Source: an uncultured Patescibacteria group bacterium (GTDB lineage: Bacteria > Patescibacteriota > Minisyncoccia > Phycocordibacterales > UBA918). From it: a stretch of DNA of 64,000 bases. Below, one piece after another: positions 1 to 53,609 of the stretch. The stretch spans positions 10,130-74,129 of the forward strand of contig CAKUWT010000003.1 of assembly GCA_934699595.1 (NCBI GenBank). The letters run 5' to 3'. Below the pieces are notes generated by a model that searched no databases, had not been told where the DNA came from, and saw nothing but the letters and a program-made list of their open reading frames with translations. The position numbers and the translations under genes were made by a program. How positions within the stretch are numbered: the first letter of the stretch is position 1; each line of letters starts with the position of its first letter.

Positions 1-296
1 GAGGCCTTGCTGCTCGCCAAGCTGAAGCTACCGTCATCGACGGCGAAGCTCGAGCTGAAGCAGCTCGTAAGGTAGCAGCCGTGGCAAACGAGAGCCCAAT
101 AGGGGCAAACGTTATTACCCTGGAGGCCTACATGAAGGCAGTCCAGGCGGCGGCAGACGGGAAGAGTGCTAACATCATTCTCCCCGCAATCGGTCAAGGA
201 ATCGGGGCGGATCCTCTACAGTTGCTGCAACTGCAACAACTGCAAGAGCTCAACAAGAACGAGGAGGGAAAAAAGGATGTCGAAGATAACAACTAG
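1..296 (+). CDS. 3' end of a hypothetical protein; the ORF is open from the window edge, so the gene continues upstream
   Basis: Reading frame 3 is open from nt 3 to the TAG at 294-296. The track ORF 81..296 is only its tail. No recognisable motif. Confidence 0.35.
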   Translation, partial: GLAARQAEATVIDGEARAEAARKVAAVANESPIGANVITLEAYMKAVQAAADGKSANIILPAIGQGIGADPLQLLQLQQLQELNKNEEGKKDVEDNN

Positions 297-1302
297 ACTC
301 GGGAGGTACTGGAAGGTCCTCCTAGGACTGGTCGTGATGGTTGGCATTCTTTACTGGATGCTGACCTTCACACCAGAGCCATTCACAGCAGATACTACCG
401 CCAGTAATGGCGGTAGTATCGGTAAAGTCTTTATGGCTATTATCATCATTGTGACAATTATCATCGTCGCGAGACTGGTGATAAGAAAAACCAACCGCAG
501 CCTACTCCCTCACCTCCAACACCCACTTCGGGGTGTAGGCACCAAGAAGTTGGGCGCAGGAGTCAAAGTGACTCTCAAGCTGGCAGCCATGGTTGCCCTC
601 GCTATCGGCGTAATTCTTTATGCCGATAGGATCATCGGGTACCTTTGGTACCTCGGTGAAACAAGCAGTCTGCAGAATACCGGCATCGCTCGGTCCTTCA
701 ACTATCTGATGCCCGGCTCAGCCAGCTGGCTCTTGCCGACACTTATCTTTATAGGTGCTCTGGCACTTATCGTTTATCTCCTGCAGATAAACGGTCCCAC
801 CAAAGGAGCCTATGGACCAAAACGAGCTGGCTATCTGGCTATCCTCTTTTGGGTAGTCCTGTTGGGCGGCGGGGTTTTTCTGATCTACCAAGTGGGTAGC
901 GGGATTTCCCAGACTGCTTCTGGCGCTGTTGAACGACTGGATCGAGTCATCGGCTTCCAACAGACCCCGACCGTGAGGGACGCACAAAGAGCGACTCTTG
1001 TGGAGCGACCGACTCCCAACAATCAAGTGTTGGGAGAAATGACTGAGGTCCTTTTTCCCGGCGCTTACAGCGCTAAGTACGTCACCGGAGCGGGGAACGG
1101 CTACGTCTATAAAGCCATCGATCCCGCCACTGGTGAACGGGTCGCTGCGCTCGACGTCTTCATCCTCGACAGCCGTGGCAACTGGGTTGACGAGGACGTC
1201 TTCTATGCGTCGGGTCAAACCGATGCGGGAAAGGTGATGTTCAAGAATGTGACCGACCGCAACGTCAAACTGGTCTATGAAAGAACCAGACTCGGTCACT
1301 GA
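277..1302 (+). CDS. hypothetical multi-pass membrane protein
   Basis: ATG at 277 preceded by GGAGG (261-266). Several hydrophobic helices, no family motif recognised. Overlaps the upstream ORF by 20 nt. Confidence 0.55.
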   Translation: MSKITTRLGRYWKVLLGLVVMVGILYWMLTFTPEPFTADTTASNGGSIGKVFMAIIIIVTIIIVARLVIRKTNRSLLPHLQHPLRGVGTKKLGAGVKVTLKLAAMVALAIGVILYADRIIGYLWYLGETSSLQNTGIARSFNYLMPGSASWLLPTLIFIGALALIVYLLQINGPTKGAYGPKRAGYLAILFWVVLLGGGVFLIYQVGSGISQTASGAVERLDRVIGFQQTPTVRDAQRATLVERPTPNNQVLGEMTEVLFPGAYSAKYVTGAGNGYVYKAIDPATGERVAALDVFILDSRGNWVDEDVFYASGQTDAGKVMFKNVTDRNVKLVYERTRLGH

Positions 1303-1393
1303 CAAATTCCTTTCGATGACACAACTCAAGCCCCTTTCCAAAATCTGGAAGGGGCTTTTCTTTTATACTTTTACCGTAGTTTAGTAAATAAGC

Positions 1394-1777
1394 TTATGGT
1401 TTTGGTGGCGTGAACTTGTCGAAGCGATCAGTGTTAAACACACTATCGCAGCCAGAGGCACCCGGGTTATCAGCGCAATCTAGGGTATCCCCTAGGTTGA
1501 AAGTGCCGGCAGCAATTTTCAAAATAGCGAAGGCTGAGAGCATGACCAACATGCCAATTATTCCCCACATAATATGTTTTTGTCCTTCTGCCCGAGCAGC
1601 TGGATTGTTCGCGTTTGTGACGTACATCACCGCTCCATATACAAACACCAGTAAAGCCAGTGCGATCATTAAAGTAATGATCGGAAAAAGGATAATGTCG
1701 TTGACTTTTTCCACAAAACCTCGGGCTACATCCACTCCTGGAGATTGAGCGTGAGCGATAGTGATTAAATAAGGCAT
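1394..1777 (-). CDS. T4SS pilin-like small membrane protein (TrbC/VirB2-like family common in CPR)
   Basis: 127 aa with two hydrophobic helices and the motif ALALLVFVYG that is shared with the neighbouring paralogs. Confidence 0.55.
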   Translation of the reverse strand: MPYLITIAHAQSPGVDVARGFVEKVNDIILFPIITLMIALALLVFVYGAVMYVTNANNPAARAEGQKHIMWGIIGMLVMLSAFAILKIAAGTFNLGDTLDCADNPGASGCDSVFNTDRFDKFTPPKP

Positions 1778-1804
1778 AATTATCTATGAAACCAAAGAAT
1801 GATT

Positions 1805-2203
1805 CTAACCACCCCAGGTCGGTGCAGTAGGTAGAGTGGGAGTGCCAGACACACCTAAGCCGGTTACAATCAAGTTAACCACTCCGAAGAAAATCAGAAC
1901 TATCACAAACCCAGCGATAGAGTAGGTGATCAAATATGTTCCCTTCTTTCGCTCCTCTTCATTGGCCGCTCCTTTAACATAAAAAATAAATACTCCCCAG
2001 ACAAATACCAAAAAGGCGAGGGCTAGGATAGCCGGAATCAGGATGGAGTTGATAAACTCTGCAACATTTTTTAGAATGACAGCGAATGAATTACTCTTTG
2101 CCCACCCAGCAGAACCAATACCAGTCCCTGCCCCTTGAGCGAAAGTCACGAATGGGAGTACAGACAAAAAGGTCGCTAATAGGGCTGAATAAATTTTCTC
2201 CAT
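1805..2203 (-). CDS. T4SS pilin-like protein with signal peptide (paralog 2)
   Basis: Motif NSILIPAILALAFLVFVWG is identical to paralog 3. ATG at 2203; the track start at 2221 is a TTG. Confidence 0.6.
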   Translation of the reverse strand: MEKIYSALLATFLSVLPFVTFAQGAGTGIGSAGWAKSNSFAVILKNVAEFINSILIPAILALAFLVFVWGVFIFYVKGAANEEERKKGTYLITYSIAGFVIVLIFFGVVNLIVTGLGVSGTPTLPTAPTWGG

Positions 2204-2318
2204 AAATATATATTTAGGCAAGTTACTTAAAATATTTGTAAACTATCTTACATTATTCCTAATTCTAACATGGTCCTTGTGTAGATATGGCTAAATAAAC
2301 CTTCCCGTGTAGATAAAA

Positions 2319-2349
2319 ACCGCTTACTTTATAGTAAGCGGTTTTTACC
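2319..2349. terminator. hairpin aaccgcttact..agtaagcggtt flanked by A/T runs (bidirectional terminator)
   Basis: Perfect 11-bp stem followed by ttttt, read directly from the sequence downstream of the pilin gene 2403..2786(-). Confidence 0.5.
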
Positions 2350-2402
2350 GACATGTTTGAGTTGAGACGAAAACTACTTTAAAAAGCTGCGCTTACTAAG
2401 GC

Positions 2403-2786
2403 TTAAACCTCAACACCTACTGGTCGGGTAATGGTATCACCCTCAAGGCCGCTGCCAAAACCTTCAATCAGTAAGTTAACTAGACCAAAGAAAATCAGAA
2501 TAACGACGAATCCAGCCAAGGCATAGATCATCAAACTTCGACCCTTGCCCTTAGCTTCATCATCAGCACCACCTTTAATAAAATAAAGGAAGATACCCCA
2601 AACAAATACCAAAAAGGCGAGGGCTAGAATAGCCGGAATCAGGATGGAGTTGATGAACATCACCAGATTCTGGATAATTTGAGCAAACCGATTGCCAGTA
2701 CCATCGCTAATCAATCCTTGAGCACTAGCTGCAAATGGCAGTACCGCGAGGACGCCTAGAGTCAATAATGAAGAGATTTTTTTCAT
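2403..2786 (-). CDS. T4SS pilin-like protein with signal peptide (paralog 3)
   Basis: Signal peptide plus NSILIPAILALAFLVFVWGIFLYFIKGG; a tandem paralog of 1805..2203. Confidence 0.65.
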   Translation of the reverse strand: MKKISSLLTLGVLAVLPFAASAQGLISDGTGNRFAQIIQNLVMFINSILIPAILALAFLVFVWGIFLYFIKGGADDEAKGKGRSLMIYALAGFVVILIFFGLVNLLIEGFGSGLEGDTITRPVGVEV

Positions 2787-2912
2787 GAACTTATGCGTAA
2801 TAAATAATAATGATTAATCTACACGGAGTACGATGATCTCTCGTAGACTCAATAAACAATACCTCAAAAATACCTAGATGTAAACTTACCGTATCACTAC
2901 CCTGTGGGAAAA

Positions 2913-3170
2913 CTAACCGAACAGTCCCGCTCTGAGAATTGCCAAAATCCCCCACAAGCTAGATATAATTGCCAACACAATAATACCGACAGTTAAAGTT
3001 ACCCTTCCCTCAGCATGTTTCTTTTCATCACCAGCATTTATTATCCAGGAATCCACCAATTTCCAAACAATTACCAAAAAAGCCACTGCTATTAAAACTG
3101 GAATCATTAAATTAATTAAACCAATAATATGATTAACTAAATCGGCTAAGGTATTTGGAGGACTACTCAT
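2913..3170 (-). CDS. small pilin-like membrane protein (paralog 4, no signal peptide)
   Basis: 85 aa, two TM helices, VLIAVAFLVIVWKL resembles the core of the neighbours. Confidence 0.45.
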   Translation of the reverse strand: MSSPPNTLADLVNHIIGLINLMIPVLIAVAFLVIVWKLVDSWIINAGDEKKHAEGRVTLTVGIIVLAIISSLWGILAILRAGLFG

Positions 3171-3180
3171 AATAATTGAA

Positions 3181-3633
3181 TTAACCAGCGAAGGAATCCA
3201 CTAAATTCTTAATAATTTCCGCGATCGTAACCGCTCCCAAGATGAGCACACCACCGATGACCGCGTAAGTGAGAGCCGCGGTAGCTTTTTGGGTTTCGGC
3301 AGCATTGCCACGGGCGGTGACATACTTAAAACCAGCTAGAATAATGAAGAAGACCACCACGGGAATGGCGAGAATTATCACCACATTGAGAATCCCGACC
3401 ATAAACTCATTAAAAGAACCAAATCTTGACATAGGGTTTTCTAGCTTTACTGAACCTGCGGCTGTTGGACTACCGCCTGAGCCACCACTCTTACCTCCAG
3501 TCGGAGAGAGTGCCCCGTCAGATCCAAAATGTTGAGCTAAAGAAAAACTAGGCAAGCTCAAGAGTACCAATGGAAAAAGTATTAACAAAGAACAAACGAT
3601 ACTATTAGCTACTATCCGAAGTTGATTTCTCAT
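3181..3633 (-). CDS. pilin-like secreted/membrane protein with Gly/Ser-rich linker (paralog 5)
   Basis: Signal peptide, GGKSGGSGGS linker, C-terminal hydrophobic hairpin IPVVVFFIILAGFKYV as in T4SS pilins. Confidence 0.5.
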   Translation of the reverse strand: MRNQLRIVANSIVCSLLILFPLVLLSLPSFSLAQHFGSDGALSPTGGKSGGSGGSPTAAGSVKLENPMSRFGSFNEFMVGILNVVIILAIPVVVFFIILAGFKYVTARGNAAETQKATAALTYAVIGGVLILGAVTIAEIIKNLVDSFAG

Positions 3634-3669
3634 AGGTTATTTATATTAAATATATTATCACAAACAAAA

Positions 3670-4983
3670 CTAATAGTTGTCACGTAGACGTAACAACGCA
3701 TCACGCACCGATTCATCAATCCGACGACGACCTGCCGTAGTGTCCTCGATCATCTGCTTGAAGATACCTTGGATAGTCTGGGGATTAGGTGACCACCAAC
3801 CGCGTGCAATCGGAGCCGACTTGAAAGCTAAGCGTCCGTACTGATCATTGCTCCCTGCTTCCAAGCTCACTCGCCGCACCGGTGCCATACCCGCAGTGAT
3901 CGCTATTTCAGCAGCGTTATCACTAGCCGATAAGGCCTGCATAACTTGATAGGCCCCATTGGGATTACGAGCACTTCTAACCACCGCAAGGCCATAGAAG
4001 GAGCCGTACGTACGACGAACGGTTGCGGTCGCGCCCTGCGGCACTTCGGCAATATCAAAATTGAGATTCGGATTTTGTCTAGCCAAACCCTTGGCTTCGC
4101 TCGCCATACCAAAATATAAGAACAATTTTTCCGCTAAGAACTGTTGCTTGTCATTGGGCAAGGAACGATTCCAGGTGTAAAACTCGTTGCTAGGATTAGA
4201 GAAATTTACATAAAAACTAAGCGCGTTTTGTAATGGTGACTCCCCACCACCGTTAACCATTTGGTTAAGTTCAATATTGTAAAAAAATCCATCTCCTGGT
4301 CTTTCAGTAATAAGTTGACTACCTCCCTGAATTAACAACATCGAAAGTACCGGAAAAACATTAGTCACATTATTATACTCACCAAAGGCTAAGGTACTAA
4401 GAGTAATATTGTGACTAAAATCTCTTTCTACCGTCTCCGTCAAAAAGCTGTTTACTAGCTCTTCCCAGGTCGCTGGTGGTGTCAAAATACCTCTAGTACT
4501 CAACATATCTCGATTCCAATACATCATCAGAGGGTCGACCGCTACCGGTAGAGCGTAGATACCGTCTTTTAGGACAAAAACTTCGGCGCCATCGATGAAG
4601 TTGTTCCGGAAATCCCGTATCGGGTAATTGGTGTACGATAATGGCAACAGACGACCGCGATTATGCACTAATTCTTCATGAGGAATTAGCACTAGGTCTG
4701 GAGCACGATTATCAGCCAAGGCTTCTAGGAATTCACTATTGAACTGACTCGGGGATTTATAGGAGTAGGACACTGCGCGCCAAGCTGGATCATTATCACC
4801 AAGTGGCCGCAGCACCGCCTCTACTGCCTCAGCCGGCATCGTACCCCAGATTTCCACAGCCCCTCCCAAACTCACGACCCCGGGTTTGGTTTTAGGTTTG
4901 TAGTTAGAAATAATAAATAACGACAACAATCCCAAAACAGCAAAGATAGTGAAGATAACTAACTCAAAAGGTCTTAATTTCAT
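3670..4983 (-). CDS. extracellular solute-binding protein (ABC transporter substrate-binding, family 1-like), N-terminal membrane anchor
   Basis: 437 aa, N-terminal TM, overall MalE-like periplasmic-binding pattern. ATG at 4981-4983 overlaps the stop of the next gene (ATGA). Confidence 0.45.
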   Translation of the reverse strand: MKLRPFELVIFTIFAVLGLLSLFIISNYKPKTKPGVVSLGGAVEIWGTMPAEAVEAVLRPLGDNDPAWRAVSYSYKSPSQFNSEFLEALADNRAPDLVLIPHEELVHNRGRLLPLSYTNYPIRDFRNNFIDGAEVFVLKDGIYALPVAVDPLMMYWNRDMLSTRGILTPPATWEELVNSFLTETVERDFSHNITLSTLAFGEYNNVTNVFPVLSMLLIQGGSQLITERPGDGFFYNIELNQMVNGGGESPLQNALSFYVNFSNPSNEFYTWNRSLPNDKQQFLAEKLFLYFGMASEAKGLARQNPNLNFDIAEVPQGATATVRRTYGSFYGLAVVRSARNPNGAYQVMQALSASDNAAEIAITAGMAPVRRVSLEAGSNDQYGRLAFKSAPIARGWWSPNPQTIQGIFKQMIEDTTAGRRRIDESVRDALLRLRDNY

Positions 4984-18209: not shown

Positions 18210-18282
18210 GGCCCTATCGTCTAGTGGTTAGGACGCAAGGTTTTCATCCTTGAAGCCGGAGTTCGATTCTCCGTAGGGTCAC
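18210..18282 (+). tRNA. tRNA-Glu (anticodon UUC)
   Basis: Cloverleaf read by eye: acceptor ggcccta/tagggtc, anticodon stem caagg/ccttg with loop ttTTCat, T-arm cggagTTCGATTctccg. Confidence 0.85.
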
Positions 18283-49650: not shown

Positions 49651-52137
49651 CTACTCTACCATTTCCGACTCGGTAACGTTAGTGTCTACCTGATCGGGAT
49701 CCTCAATCACCCTGGAGGTGACCTCTTCAGGCTTCGGTGGAGCACCTACTGAAGGCGGCACATTCTCGGAGACTACTGGTGTCTCCCCGCCAGTAACGTT
49801 TATTTCTGTGATCTCACCACTTTTAATCTTACTAATTATCTCAATCAAGAAGTCATTATCTGGAGAAAGTTGCTTAACGCTCTCCAACTCAGTAATTGCC
49901 AAATCTTTCTCACCCTGGTTTAGGTACTGAATGGCACGCATATAACGAGCATTGGCGTAATCAGAATCAAGTTCAAGAGCGCGGGTAAACGCCTTGATAG
50001 CCTCTTCTGGGTTTTCCTTAGCTATTTCCAATACTCCCAACTGGTAATAGCGACCAGGTACATTTGGCTCCAGTTTTAACAAAGTTTTAGTACTAGCAAT
50101 AGCCTTATCAAGATTTCCAGCTGTCGCCTCTAGCTGCGCAGAGAAGTTTAACGCCTCGGTAAAATTAGGCTTCTGTTTTAAAGCTTTGTCCAAATATTCG
50201 CGAGACTCATCATATTTTTGCATCCGAGCGCTGACTTGTGCCAGATAAAGATTGTAGAGCGGATTATTCGGTTCCAAACTTAAGGCGTGCTTGAAAGTGT
50301 CGTTAGCCTTATCATCAGCTCCCTCCACTTCGGTAGAGACTAGTAGCGAGTAGGTACTAGCCAAGGCCAACCAGTTATTGACGTCCCGCGGGTTAAGACT
50401 GACTGCGGTCTCAGCGGTCGAAATCGTCGAAAGAAATAGACCCTCAAACTCCTCTCGGTCACCATCATCCGGCTCGGCAATCGCTAGAAGTTGCCCCAAT
50501 CGACTCTGATAAACCCCCACCAGCTCTCTCAGATACAAGTCGTAAGTATAAAGCTGGTAAGATTTTACCAATCCTGCTTCCCACTCTCCCAACTCTGCTT
50601 CAGCAGAGATTTTGCTTGGCAAAGTGACGTAGTTGTAGGCAGCTAGTAATTGCTTAGTGGCTAAGTAATTAAAAGAGATCAGGAAAACAATCAGCACCAG
50701 GACACCGGCCACTAAGGCGAAGCCTTTTTGTCGATCACCGTTAACCACCAGCTGCAGCTTTTCCGTACCAGATAATTGCTTAGCACTAACTACCAGTAAT
50801 CCTGTCGTGGCTACCGCTATTAAAATCGGCACAAAGCCAGCCGTCATCAGTAAAAGGACTGCCCATAAATAAATTGCTCCCGAAAAAGCCGCACTACCAA
50901 ATAAAAACCACAAAGTATTTGGACGATCTTGTTTACGTAACAGCATTCGCAGCCCTTCATAAACCAAACTACCCAAGAAGAACAACCAAGCTAACACACC
51001 AATGACGCCGGTCGTCACAAACCAAGTAAAGAGATAGCTACCGCCGCTAAAAAAACTAGTATTCCAAAAAACAGTTTGATTGATATCCTCAGTTTTATAA
51101 AGTCGCCAGTTTTCAACAAAGGTATTTGGGCCACTACCAGTGAAGAAGTTCTGACGGTAGATATCCTTACCAATACTGATTGTGGCGGCAATATTTGGTC
51201 GCACATCCATATAGGAAAGATTGTAATAATTGGTGACTTTCTGGTTGAAACTAGTACCCAAAAAAAGCATCGCTGTGGTTACTAAAAAGACCGTCAACAA
51301 AATTACTACTGATAAATTCTTAATGGTTAACTTTGGTGAACTAACTCTTTCGCTTGGTAGGATAAACAAGTCTTTGACCAGTGAGTATACCAATAACAGC
51401 AAGGAGAACCCTGACAACATGAGCCACAAAAAACCAGCATTGAGGAGTAAAAGGTTAAATAATGCGACGAGAATATTGAGACCAAGAATAGCAGTAATTG
51501 TGCCTGAGAGTCGCTTCTGGGAAACAATTACCAGTGTCACCACTACGAGAAATCCCGCCAAGATACCAACGTCTGCCAGACTACCAACGAGGGCCTGACT
51601 CCAGGCCGGAAGATTCATTCCAAAGACCTGCCCTTTAGTCAATACAACAAACAACTGGTACCAACTCACCACACTAAGAGCCGCAAATAGTCCCACACTG
51701 ATGAACAGCGCAGTTCTTTTAGTGCTGACCAGAACCATTGTGGTAACCAGCACCATCCCTAACAGTGCTAAATTGCCAACAGTAAAGACGTCGAGCACCA
51801 CTCCGAAGAATGACTGTTTAATACTGGCGGCTAAAATTCCAGACAAGGCAGCAGCAGCTACGACCGCACCAAATGAGACTACTACTGGCGAAAACCAATA
51901 ACTGACGCGACCGCTCCGCAAGGTGGCCAAGGCCAATAAGATTAAAGACAGGGAGATTCCAAATAAAAGTATGTAAATTTTAGCTACTCCTAAGCTAGCC
52001 GCAACTCTAGGAAGAAAAAGTAGTGGCCAAGCAAGAAAAGTGACAAAAAAACTCAAAGCCGCAGACTTCAAAAAGAAACGATGCAGAGAGTCGAAGTGCG
52101 GTGTCGCTGATAATGGTGAAAAAGATGGAATATTCAT
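49651..52137 (-). CDS. O-antigen-ligase-like polytopic membrane protein with C-terminal TPR repeats
   Basis: Many TM helices in the first ~480 aa, then TPR-like repeats (..YLAQV..KYDESREYLDKALK..). Confidence 0.5.
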   Translation of the reverse strand: MNIPSFSPLSATPHFDSLHRFFLKSAALSFFVTFLAWPLLFLPRVAASLGVAKIYILLFGISLSLILLALATLRSGRVSYWFSPVVVSFGAVVAAAALSGILAASIKQSFFGVVLDVFTVGNLALLGMVLVTTMVLVSTKRTALFISVGLFAALSVVSWYQLFVVLTKGQVFGMNLPAWSQALVGSLADVGILAGFLVVVTLVIVSQKRLSGTITAILGLNILVALFNLLLLNAGFLWLMLSGFSLLLLVYSLVKDLFILPSERVSSPKLTIKNLSVVILLTVFLVTTAMLFLGTSFNQKVTNYYNLSYMDVRPNIAATISIGKDIYRQNFFTGSGPNTFVENWRLYKTEDINQTVFWNTSFFSGGSYLFTWFVTTGVIGVLAWLFFLGSLVYEGLRMLLRKQDRPNTLWFLFGSAAFSGAIYLWAVLLLMTAGFVPILIAVATTGLLVVSAKQLSGTEKLQLVVNGDRQKGFALVAGVLVLIVFLISFNYLATKQLLAAYNYVTLPSKISAEAELGEWEAGLVKSYQLYTYDLYLRELVGVYQSRLGQLLAIAEPDDGDREEFEGLFLSTISTAETAVSLNPRDVNNWLALASTYSLLVSTEVEGADDKANDTFKHALSLEPNNPLYNLYLAQVSARMQKYDESREYLDKALKQKPNFTEALNFSAQLEATAGNLDKAIASTKTLLKLEPNVPGRYYQLGVLEIAKENPEEAIKAFTRALELDSDYANARYMRAIQYLNQGEKDLAITELESVKQLSPDNDFLIEIISKIKSGEITEINVTGGETPVVSENVPPSVGAPPKPEEVTSRVIEDPDQVDTNVTESEMVE

Positions 52138-52474
52138 AAAAACTGGCGAACAAAAACCGTTAACTTAATATAGTTCTATATTAACATAGCAAAAAACCGC
52201 CAACCTGAGGGTTGACGGTTTTTCTGCATATAAGCCGAATTCTGTATGCCACACCTATTTTATCATCGAGTCAACTACTTGGCTGGCACAAAAGTAAAAT
52301 CCTTTCGGACAATGACTCAATAGCAAAATAGGTGTGGCATGGTGGTCATATATCTGGGATAGCTGTTACCAACTACCTCAAGCGGCTCTCCCAGCCCCAG
52401 TTTCGATAATCATTTATTACCTAAAGTGCTTTACTCACTCAGAATCAGCCTGTTACGGATGGAAAATAAATAAT

Positions 52475-52975
52475 TACTAAAACTGGGGCTGGGCACGGCC
52501 TTGCACGCGAGTAAGGATTTAGCCGTTTCACCCGAGCACGTTCTAGAGCGACTATCAAACAGTCAGAATAATTACGAAACTTCGTGAGAGCATTATTCAA
52601 AACGATAATCGCACCAGAACGTGCTCGGCTACACCCCAAAAAGGAATGCCTGATACTGTTTCCAGCACCAGCGTCTCTGTTCGCACCTCTCCAAGCACGT
52701 CCTGGTGGGGATATTAACGACAGTAATTTCCTTACCCTTCAATAGGAAACTACTCGAGACAATACCCGCACAAGGACGTGCTCGGGACGGGGGTTACCCG
52801 CTACCTGGCTCCGCGGTCCCAGATTTTACCAACAGCAGTGTACTGCAGGCAAAATCTGGGACCGGGGCGTGTTCGGACTTTCCTCCCAGTTTCACTTTTT
52901 TCCTAACCTTCCGTAACTAATAATCAAGGCAAAGAAAAAAGTGAAACTGGGCGACCAACCCTGCTCCCATACTAT
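52475..52975 (-). ncRNA. rnpB: probable RNase P RNA with unusually long P3 and extra long-range helices (boundaries approximate)
   Basis: Minus strand reads GGAGGAAAGTCCGAAC (P4 5' strand consensus) directly after a 16-bp-stem P3 hairpin, and a CR-III-like GTTAATATCCCCACCAGGA downstream. The region is 890 bp of noncoding DNA. Confidence 0.5.
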
Positions 52976-53028
52976 AGCATAAAATCACCTCCTGTAAAGT
53001 GAGCCTCTTTTCTTACTTAAATTATTTT

Positions 53029-53538
53029 TTACTCTACAAACAATCTCTTCTCCGCTATCTCGGGAACAACCGCTCCCGCCGTCAATCCCCATTCCGCCGT
53101 CTTGCCGGCATTAACCTCAACTACATACCTTACAGGAGCGGCAGGAAAAAATACTTCAGGGTAACTCTCTGGGGTAGCCCCTTCTTTAATTGTCACGACC
53201 TCCCCCAGACTATCAATCCAGATAATATCAATTGGAAAACTCATTTCCTTCATCCAAATCCCCCATTCACCATCTTGGGGGAAAATAAACAACCTTCCTG
53301 TCGTAGCTGGTAATGATTCTACACCAGACAGTCCTTGCGCCCGCAGAGCTTCTGTATCTAGGATCTGCACTTCTACCGTTGCGGTTCCCAGAACTAAATA
53401 ACTAGTCTTAACTTTACGCTGCTGACTCTGAGTAAACCAGATACCACTCACAAGAGCCACTATGATTACTAACAATAGTATTTTTCCTGCCATTACCGCG
53501 GGTCTGTTTTCTCTACCCATCTTTACATTATAAGTCAT
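53029..53538 (-). CDS. DUF192-family protein (COG1430)
   Basis: ..GLSGVESLP..GRLFIFP..WMKEMSFPIDIIWIDSLGEVV..YVVEVNAG pattern; ATG at 53536-53538. Confidence 0.6.
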   Translation of the reverse strand: MTYNVKMGRENRPAVMAGKILLLVIIVALVSGIWFTQSQQRKVKTSYLVLGTATVEVQILDTEALRAQGLSGVESLPATTGRLFIFPQDGEWGIWMKEMSFPIDIIWIDSLGEVVTIKEGATPESYPEVFFPAAPVRYVVEVNAGKTAEWGLTAGAVVPEIAEKRLFVE

Positions 53539-53609
53539 TAGCACTCTCGAGAAAGCCAGTTTTACTAAAGTAAAACTGGCTTTCTTACCCCCACACACTT
53601 CTCTCCAAT

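Follow-up and report, generated by a model that had tools for sequence, protein, structure and literature searches.

In the DNA analyzed here (64,000 nt of contig CAKUWT010000003.1 from an uncultured Patescibacteria group bacterium; hereafter the window), the gene-free block at 52140-53028 is very probably a single rnpB gene, which would encode on the minus strand a class A RNase P RNA of a bacterium from the Paceibacteria/Parcubacteria in the Candidate Phyla Radiation (CPR). Six peripheral helices of this RNA, namely P3, a P5.1-like helix, P9, P14, P16 and P19, appear to be lengthened at the distal tip by long, nearly perfect hairpins; together these amount to 516 nt, or ~70% of an RNA of ~741 nt, and the excess over compact relatives is ~390 nt. 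The simplest reading of the sequence is that the hairpins are tolerated expansion segments projecting from an intact core, and we think they probably stay in the mature RNA. An earlier note, made from the letters of this DNA alone, had proposed an rnpB gene with lineage-specific insertions, and this proposal is borne out by a match to the Rfam model RF00010, by synteny and by covariation of the core helices.

Identity as an RNase P RNA

It is synteny with compact rnpB genes, together with the covariation of the core helices, that decides the identity of the gene. The block lies between a DUF192 gene (53029-53598) and a gene for an 828-aa TPR/membrane protein (49651-52137), both on the minus strand; by its homologs, the TPR protein encoded downstream assigns the organism to the Parcubacteria/Minisyncoccota. 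Three related loci (loci are given by L numbers) have a compact rnpB adjoining a homologous TPR-protein gene: L005 (TPR protein 47% identical, rnpB of 379 nt on the same strand, RF00010 score 84.7 bits), L004 (50%, 360 nt, same strand, 56.4 bits) and the distant L009 (27%, 347 nt, opposite strand, 116.8 bits, which is above the cut-off of the model). In L004 and L005 the gene sits in the same place as in the window, and in each fetched relative locus one rnpB was detected, syntenic with the window locus. When the four RNAs are aligned, the core blocks are all invariant, and the extra sequence of the window is split among six separate blocks, each at a helix tip.

The core elements follow one another in canonical order (P2, the P4 strands, P5, P8, CR-II, P12, P13, CR-III, P15 and a GNRA-looped P18), and CR-II AGAGGUGCGAACAGAGA and CR-III ACGGCUAAAUCCUUAC are invariant against the relatives validated by covariance models. 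CR-III proper is ACGGCUAAAUCCUUACUC, at about 52509-52526, within which AAAUCCUUAC, running into the P5 3' strand, forms part of the core string with which genomes were scanned, as described below. The earlier note had placed a CR-III-like element at AATATCCCCACCAGGA; that string is indeed there, but it forms the 3' arm of the extended P9, and AAUAUCCCCACC was rejected as CR-III on the same grounds by alignment and folding. With the P4 5' strand the note was correct, as GGAGGAAAGUCCGAAC (52871-52886) follows directly on the P3 hairpin.

Covariation was read from helices taken by anchors from 118 distinct related RNAs of the scan described below for P4 and P5, and from 96 alignable RNAs for P2 and P18. 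P4 is formed in the window by GAGGAAAGUCCGAA with ACAGAAUUCGGCUUA, ~640 nt apart, and comprises 8 bp and a bulged U, with AAG(U)CCGAA pairing with UUCGGCUU; the CR-I (GAGGAAAGUCC...)/CR-V (ACAGAAnnnGGCUUA) helix expected of a class A RNA is present. The three distal pairs of P4 vary in a compensatory manner across the 118 RNAs (GAA/UUC in 76, GGA/UCC in 30, GGG/CCC in 5 and GAG/CUC in 3, with a mismatch in 1 RNA), and the window, with GAA/UUC, is in line with this. P5 shows more than 15 compensatory variants across the clade, the P2 3' strand has a perfect 7-nt upstream partner in 68 of 96 RNAs as compared to 20% for permuted partners, and in 96 of 96 RNAs P18 is made up of 8 bp capped by a GNRA loop, most positions of the helix showing three to five pair types. 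The window conforms to all four covariation rules. Because the long-range helices P2, P4 and P5 cannot come from independent local hairpins, the block is one RNA; the whole 779-nt stretch folds with z = -14.5 relative to shuffled sequences.

A GNRA-capped P18 is specific to class A, while class B RNAs have P10.1 and P15.1 in place of P13 and P14. Both P13 and P14 are present in the window, as judged by position relative to its relatives, and the tip of P14 has no GNRA loop at the usual class A distance. No P6 pairing was identified and no P17 is evident, although no search aimed at P6 was made; throughout the clade a P5.1-like hairpin takes the usual place of the P6 5' strand, and P16 is a simple hairpin in the compact members.

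The earlier note had named a covariance-model search as the way to check its proposal, and had named the lack of a significant match, together with a convincing rnpB elsewhere in the genome, as speaking against it. A scan of the whole window at the Rfam gathering thresholds returned six tRNAs only and no RNase P match. A permissive local scan of the region gave a match to RF00010 (38.9 bits, E 1.8e-10) over 52215-52567, with confident alignment at P15, P18, J18/2, the P2 3' strand, CR-V and P1'; the alignment of the 5' part is forced and wrong, since the true CR-I GAGGAAAGUCCGAAC (52871-52885) lies 300 nt further upstream. No second rnpB was found by Rfam scan within the 64 kb. Further matches in the region to miRNA, Phe-leader, RNAI and ncr1175 families were set aside as generic long-hairpin matches far under their cut-offs. 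The low score can be attributed to the insertions, given that 0 of 14 expanded relatives reach the gathering score whereas the compact L009 and the open reading frame (ORF)-bearing L209 do.

Several observations weigh against this assignment. The RF00010 match falls well short of the gathering cut-off of 100 bits, and the 5' half alone (52640-52975) gave no RNase P match in an Rfam scan, only miRNA-like hairpin noise. P1 is reduced to ~3 bp, as compared to 5 bp in L005 and 10-13 bp in L209 and L024, and the L15 loop reads GUG/AGA, without the GGU that in class A pairs with the tRNA 3'-CCA. The evidence for the inserted hairpins is their thermodynamic stability and complementarity; covariation gives no support beyond a single change at the base of P16 (see below), because the three assemblies that carry them are identical. 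Activity is assumed, since the extended P9 and P14 would prevent the canonical docking of L9 and L14; no rnpA was found in the window, and the check for a second rnpB extends over the same 64 kb. With regard to L15, the six tRNA genes of the window (at 18210, 32852, 35362, 44157, 44772 and 60513) encode the 3' CCA in only two cases (Val and Gln), which fits a loop without the CCA-pairing GGU.

The coordinates of the elements are given in Table 1. On the minus strand, 52190-52998 holds in turn a promoter-like site, the ~740-nt RNA and a terminator hairpin. The ends of the RNA are deduced from the promoter, the position of P1 and the terminator, and the primary transcript probably runs to ~52190. 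By sequence comparison, relatives have a box of the TGnTATAAT type at the same distance from P1 as in the window, and L004 and L005 have hairpin-forming sequence at the position equivalent to the terminator. The gene-free gap is identical in three assemblies (L001-L003, 100% across all six hairpins), which may derive from one sample or from related ones, and none of them has a gene called there. Two ORFs, 52445-52639 (minus strand) and 52705-52920 (plus strand), were rejected as genes, having no Pfam match and lying entirely within the RNA; the earlier note had rightly taken them as spurious. The two closest relatives with a compact rnpB, L004 (4935-5414) and L005 (5032-5481), have an additional ~650 nt between the DUF192 gene and rnpB, which holds a called ORF of 149-159 aa without a Pfam family, and, unlike the arrangement in the window, their loci also include FUR and ZIP genes.

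Table 1. Elements of the predicted rnpB gene and its flanking signals (window coordinates; elements ordered 5' to 3' on the minus strand)
Element	Positions	Strand	Remarks
Promoter-like site	52971-52998	-	TTTACA, 16-nt spacer, TATAGT, extended -10 TG; sigma-70-like; 10/12 consensus matches
RNase P RNA (rnpB)	52224-52964	-	estimated mature span ~741 nt
P1, reduced to 3 bp	GCA 52962-52964 with UGC 52226-52228	-	assigned by position; uncertain
P2 5' strand GGU(U)GGUC	52953-52960	-	pairs with GACCACC 52341-52347
P3 hairpin, 67 nt	52885-52951	-	z = -8.4; continuous 20-bp stem; ~22 nt in L005
CR-I GAGGAAAGUCCGAAC	52871-52885	-	invariant in four-RNA alignment
P4 5' strand AAG(U)CCGAA	52872-52880	-	pairs with 52232-52239
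P5 5' strand CACGC	52867-52871	-	pairs with GCGUG 52504-52508, ~360 nt away
P5.1-like hairpin between P5 and P7, 56 nt	52811-52866	-	z = -9.5; ~21 nt in L005
P7 5' strand and P8 (GGUA GCGGG-UAACC-CCCGU)	52787-52805	-	nearly invariant; aligned by RF00010 as P7/P8 in L005, L009
P9 hairpin "A", 96 nt	52691-52786	-	closed by cccgagcacgtcc/ggacgtgcttgg; z = -8.9
P10/P11 5' strand and CR-II AGAGGUGCGAACAGAGA	52674-52690	-	invariant block; RF00010 CR-II in relatives; pairs by position
P12, 9 bp, GAAA loop	52648-52673	-	folding; position from alignment
P13, short hairpin AUUCC-UUUUU-GGGGU	52633-52647	-	weak stem (-2.6 kcal/mol); assigned by position
P14 hairpin "B", 98 nt	52532-52629	-	closed by gccgagcacgttctgg/ctagaacgtgctcgg; z = -9.2
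CR-III with P11, P10, P7 3' strands GUGAAACGGCUAAAUCCUUACUC	52509-52531	-	RF00010 hit, alignment
P15, L15 internal loop and P16	52384-52500	-	P16 tip bears the hairpin of the next line
P16-tip hairpin, 104 nt	52390-52493	-	closed by cccagccccagttt/aaactggggctgg; z = -7.6
P18, 8 bp and GUAA tetraloop	52357-52377	-	GGUAGUUG-GUAA-CAGCUAUC; 8/8 paired
P19 hairpin, 95 nt	52246-52340	-	gccacacctatttt inverted repeat; 17-bp perfect base; z = -9.1
CR-V ACAGAAUUCGGCUUA (P4 3' strand)	52231-52245	-	RF00010 hit, alignment, covariation
Intrinsic-terminator-like hairpin, then U run	52192-52223	-	14 bp, -18.9 kcal/mol, z = -5.1

The six hairpins and the size of the RNA

Each of the six extensions forms 19-30 bp of nearly continuous duplex, with z between -7.6 and -9.5 and 0 of 200 dinucleotide shuffles folding equally well. 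The sequence features listed in the earlier note are present on the minus strand, and the shuffles place the hairpins beyond chance. Its P3-type hairpin holds, the quoted 16-nt arms being perfectly complementary within a longer continuous stem, and so does its inverted repeat at 52246..52338, which is the base of the P19 hairpin. The hairpin it gave as 52378..52493 is indeed closed by cccagccccagttt/aaactggggctgg, but its start was set 12 nt too low. Two helices with CCGAGCACGU that it regarded as lying outside the type A layout sit exactly at the positions of P9 and P14, and the 56-nt hairpin between P5 and P7 had been missed.

The hairpins are distributed sporadically, being missing in L004 and L005 and replaced by a different set in L024; P19, for example, is ~28 nt long in L005 and absent in L009. 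The basal stem of P16 is common to the window, L024, L014, L159, L193, L161 and L189, and here alone a compensatory change is seen (C-G to A-U in L024), with a C-A mismatch in L159 and L193. A dispersed repeat or miniature inverted-repeat transposable element (MITE) was considered for the inserted hairpins and discarded, as a blastn search of the six against the window and all loci returned only themselves. Group I introns or other Rfam families were not found in the insertions of the 14 expanded loci. A scan of a single metagenome for near relatives yielded 5 rnpB genes among 79 matches, the others being chance matches in coding DNA. The 74 of 79 matches to GGCCGTGYCCAGCCCNAGTT that are not rnpB (within L130-L208) have upstream contexts that are alike and coding-like (e.g., ...GAAGCCGGCGATGTA), and by their sequence probably reflect a conserved motif of coding DNA with no relation to rnpB.

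To place the window in its clade, we scanned one genome per species with the core string AAATCCTTACYCGNNTGCAAGG, which gave at least 120 loci, almost all from metagenome-assembled genomes of Patescibacteria/Paceibacteria. Among the matches listed there are 109 distinct RNAs, one per species, to which the following figures refer. The span from one P4 strand to the other has a median of 314 nt and an interquartile range of 284-375 nt; it reaches at least 450 nt in 18 of the 109 species (17%, a figure that is indicative only, as the survey is biased to RNAs with the exact AAATCCTTACYCGNNTGCAAGG) and at least 600 nt in 3. With 655 nt the window has the second largest span, exceeded only by the 731 nt of L024 (Parcubacteria bacterium Greene1014_15), which is also nearest in core sequence (91 of 98 positions). 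The rnpB of L024 (VMGT01000006.1), on the minus strand of its locus, has a ~400-nt insertion in P19 without an ORF of known family.

This kind of divergence is already known in the CPR, of which the window rnpB is an extreme new member. In the parts of their study drawn on here, Lui, Nielsen and Arkin (2021, PMC8172020) report that 10 of 35 closed CPR genomes needed sub-threshold searches for rnpB to be found, that the diverged genes are the only rnpB in closed CPR genomes, that many such RNAs lack helices or have "large extensions of helices", and that the UGG motif is missing in 23 of the 35 genomes; the extensions are modeled there as retained helices.

How such an RNA would work can be outlined from the class A architecture. 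In class A RNase P the active site is formed by P4 and its surroundings, the tRNA is read at its T/D-loop elbow by the CR-II/CR-III module within the specificity domain, and P1 and P8 are the docking sites of the tetraloops L9, L14 and L18; the RNA and its protein partner RnpA cut the 5' leader from pre-tRNAs. By analogy, we assume that the RNA of the window processes pre-tRNA 5' ends with RnpA. With all the insertions confined to helix tips, the core could still assemble. P9 and P14 are lengthened by ~70-80 nt, so that the canonical L9 and L14 contacts, to P1 and P8 respectively, are predicted to be lost, and L18 (GUAA) is kept. P1, the receptor of L9, appears to have shrunk and L15 to have given up its pairing with the CCA end, as judged from the sequence, and both losses agree with what Lui et al. 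describe for the CPR.

Origin and fate of the insertions

A first indication of how the insertions arose comes from the hairpins themselves. Those of P9 and P14 are similar over their full length (64 of 100 columns identical, z = 8.8 in global and 12.8 in local alignment) and by sequence are paralogous, one a duplicate of the other. At its base (CCGAGCAC/GUGCUUGG) the P9 hairpin is similar to the short P9 of L040, and P14 may therefore be the copy. No significant similarity was found among the other pairs of inserts (P3, P5.1, P16, P19; z at most 2.8). Internal copies also occur in other expanded rnpB genes, namely between P3 and P19 in both L071 and L055, and three hairpins of L024 share a lineage-specific stem variant (CCCAAG in place of CCCCAG), which implies duplication or homogenization within the gene.

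A further stem family, CC[A/C]GC.CCA[C/G]UUU / AAA[G/C]UGG.GC[U/G]GG, is found at five rnpB positions (P3, post-P5, P13, P16 and P19), with 18 motif pairings (~11 hairpins) in 56 kb of rnpB and 0 in 755 kb of flanking DNA. Since it is confined to rnpB, it is not a genome-wide repeat. Its carriers are L014, L023, L024, L030, L062, L071, L079, L108 and the window, in which it occurs once, at P16 (52390-52493). A structured module of ~120-130 nt, GCCAAUUUUGCCUGCCGCAGGCAGCUGCAAAAUUGAGCGUCC ... GGAUGCUCGAUUCUGCAACCACCUCCGGUGGGCAGAAUCGGC, was observed separately in the rnpB genes of L103, L104, L064, L062, L116, L097, L040, L074, L079 and L123; its sites differ (after P5, P16, P19 or P3), sometimes there are two per RNA, and it matches no Rfam family.

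The P16 tip exists in several states. It is a bare 13-bp hairpin in L159 and L193, and holds inserts of ~75-80 nt in the window, L014 and L024; in L161 (JACCDV010886757.1), L189 (Ga0164241_10247941) and L209 (2410-3039; GCA_040384245.1, JAWVHA010000021.1) it holds a ~320-nt insert with an intact gene for an 87-aa GIY-YIG nuclease (Pfam PF01541, E about 1e-14 to 1e-15; 66% identity between L161 and L189, 72% between L209 and L161). The uninterrupted P16 DNA is palindromic (CCAGCCCCAGUUU...AAACUGGGGCUGG). The ORF nested in rnpB is closed by a ~21-bp stem, CCAGCCCCAGUUUUAGGUAUC / GAUACCUAAAACUGGGGCUGG, and the Rfam match in L209 extends across the ORF and scores 104.7 bits. Homologs of this nuclease with ~60% identity are found inside the 23S rRNA genes of other CPR bacteria (L211-L215), bracketed by a stem of 14-16 bp; in all five rnpB and 23S cases compared, the ORF lies within a stem of 14-21 bp and its stop codon is in the 3' arm. 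In L212 the 23S rRNA gene (78-3057) holds ORFs at 373-630 and 2501-2767, with a LAGLIDADG ORF (3134-3670) and a group I intron (4180-4457) nearby. The window RNA itself has no ORF with a family match and no GIY-YIG remnant, and its P16 insert shows no sequence similarity to the ORF-bearing elements beyond the basal stem. The P9/P14 duplicates and the insertion in the P16 tip, an insertion hotspot occupied by a GIY-YIG gene in relatives, suggest that at least some of the extensions began as mobile insertions or copies thereof.

Such an origin raises the question of whether the hairpins remain in the RNA, and here we regard their removal from the mature RNA as a tentative possibility. In its specific form, RNase III would remove the tips of the rnpB transcript as intervening sequences without religation, and the core helices would hold the fragments together, as in fragmented 23S rRNA; this we consider rather unlikely, and distinctly doubtful the stronger proposition that all six hairpins stem, as relics or copies devoid of an ORF, from a family of hairpin-bracketed GIY-YIG homing elements colonizing the tips of helices in the genes of essential structured RNAs of the CPR, and that excision of the hairpins would yield a fragmented, multi-piece ribozyme. 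The case for excision begins with the form of the insertions, all six of which have the marks of intervening sequences: they replace helix tips, have long terminal inverted repeats and are sporadic among close relatives. RNase III cuts stems of 20 bp and more, and the six duplexes are in its size range. The same P16 tip, with the same closing stem, bears the nuclease gene in L161, L189 and L209, the homologs of this nuclease lie in the same kind of stem within 23S rRNA genes, and, according to a review (PMC9698310), the transcripts of CPR rRNA genes have their insertions removed. Set against this are the absence of ORF remnants from the window hairpins, the dissimilarity of its P16 insert to the ORF-bearing elements and the treatment of such extensions as retained helices by Lui et al. 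in the parts of PMC8172020 considered above. The literature searched contains no natural fragmented bacterial RNase P RNA, nor does it report an intervening sequence or a GIY-YIG gene in the RNase P RNA of any bacterium. No RNase III or rnpA motif and no phmmer match to GIY-YIG proteins was found anywhere in the 64-kb window, an absence that is uninformative in either direction. We thus retain the reading of the hairpins as expansion segments that are probably part of the mature RNA.

Much less probable is a decaying rnpB pseudogene, with another locus of the genome, either a second rnpB or one for a protein-only RNase P, taking over the 5' processing of tRNAs. The very low Rfam score, the vestigial P1, the missing GGU and the restriction of the rnpB check to 64 kb could be read in this way. 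However, the conserved core blocks are intact and all tested helices pair, the six insertions all fall on helix tips instead of being scattered at random, neither the promoter-like site nor the terminator is disrupted, and the locus is syntenic with the sole rnpB detected in each fetched relative locus. Similar expansions occur in the 17% of related species noted above, and the diverged genes of closed CPR genomes are, as cited, the only rnpB there.

Weakest of all, to the point of being hardly credible, is a division of the block into an upstream RNase P RNA and an independent small RNA or 5' leader (52246-52493) regulating the 828-aa TPR gene, which the earlier note had entertained and for which the two long hairpins near the downstream gene and an Rfam match to only part of the block might speak, as these hairpins are the P16 tip and P19, have short counterparts at the same positions in relatives, are interleaved with and followed by the P15 3' strand, P18, J18/2, the P2 3' strand and CR-V with the P4 3' strand, and so belong to the same RNA, with the covarying P2 and P4 needing those 3' strands and the terminator hairpin standing between the RNA and the TPR gene.

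Consequences and comparison with known systems

Swollen about twofold by six tip hairpins, the gene is missed by standard annotation, and an essential gene that is invisible in this way has consequences for assessing genome completeness and for any claim of "missing RNase P" among the CPR. A clade-specific model tolerating insertions at P3, P5.1, P9, P14, P16 and P19 would mend this gap in detection. The window also amounts to a natural experiment on how much peripheral RNA a class A core can carry, ~70% of the molecule being add-on hairpin. The nuclease-bearing relatives are in our view the most interesting lead, as the genes in their P16 tip link the expansions of rnpB to the mobile insertions of CPR rRNA genes. 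Were the hairpins indeed excised relics, the organism would run on a naturally fragmented, multi-piece RNase P ribozyme.

Compared to the class A model RF00010, exemplified by the 377-nt M1 RNA of E. coli, the RNA of the window has the same core order, the same CR-I/CR-V P4 with its bulged U and a GNRA-looped P18. It is, however, about twice as long (~741 nt against 367 model positions), has six tips extended by hairpins of 56-104 nt, a P1 of ~3 bp and an L15 without GGU, and bears a P5-P7 hairpin in place of the usual single-stranded P6 strand, with no evident P6/P17. Among eukaryotes, the greatly enlarged RNase P RNA of Candida glabrata (RPR1, >1 kb) likewise illustrates that the conserved core tolerates large insertions in peripheral helices; that enzyme is nuclear and has many protein subunits, and the sites and origin of its insertions are unrelated to those of the window.

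Closer in kind are the CPR RNase P RNAs of Lui et al. (PMC8172020), which in the parts of that study used here resemble the window in scoring below the Rfam cut-offs, in their large extensions and in mostly lacking the UGG motif that binds CCA. Those RNAs have single extended helices (S5 Fig, extended P15), whereas the window has six at once, two of them paralogous; the passages of PMC8172020 on which we rely make no mention of paralogy among inserts or of a nuclease gene in rnpB. The other close parallel is with insertions in rRNA, both the intervening sequences that RNase III excises from 23S rRNA and the ORF-bearing ones of CPR rRNA genes. They differ from the window in that its hairpins have no ORF and their host is an RNase P RNA; in both settings, inverted-repeat hairpins replace helix tips and are sporadic in their occurrence.

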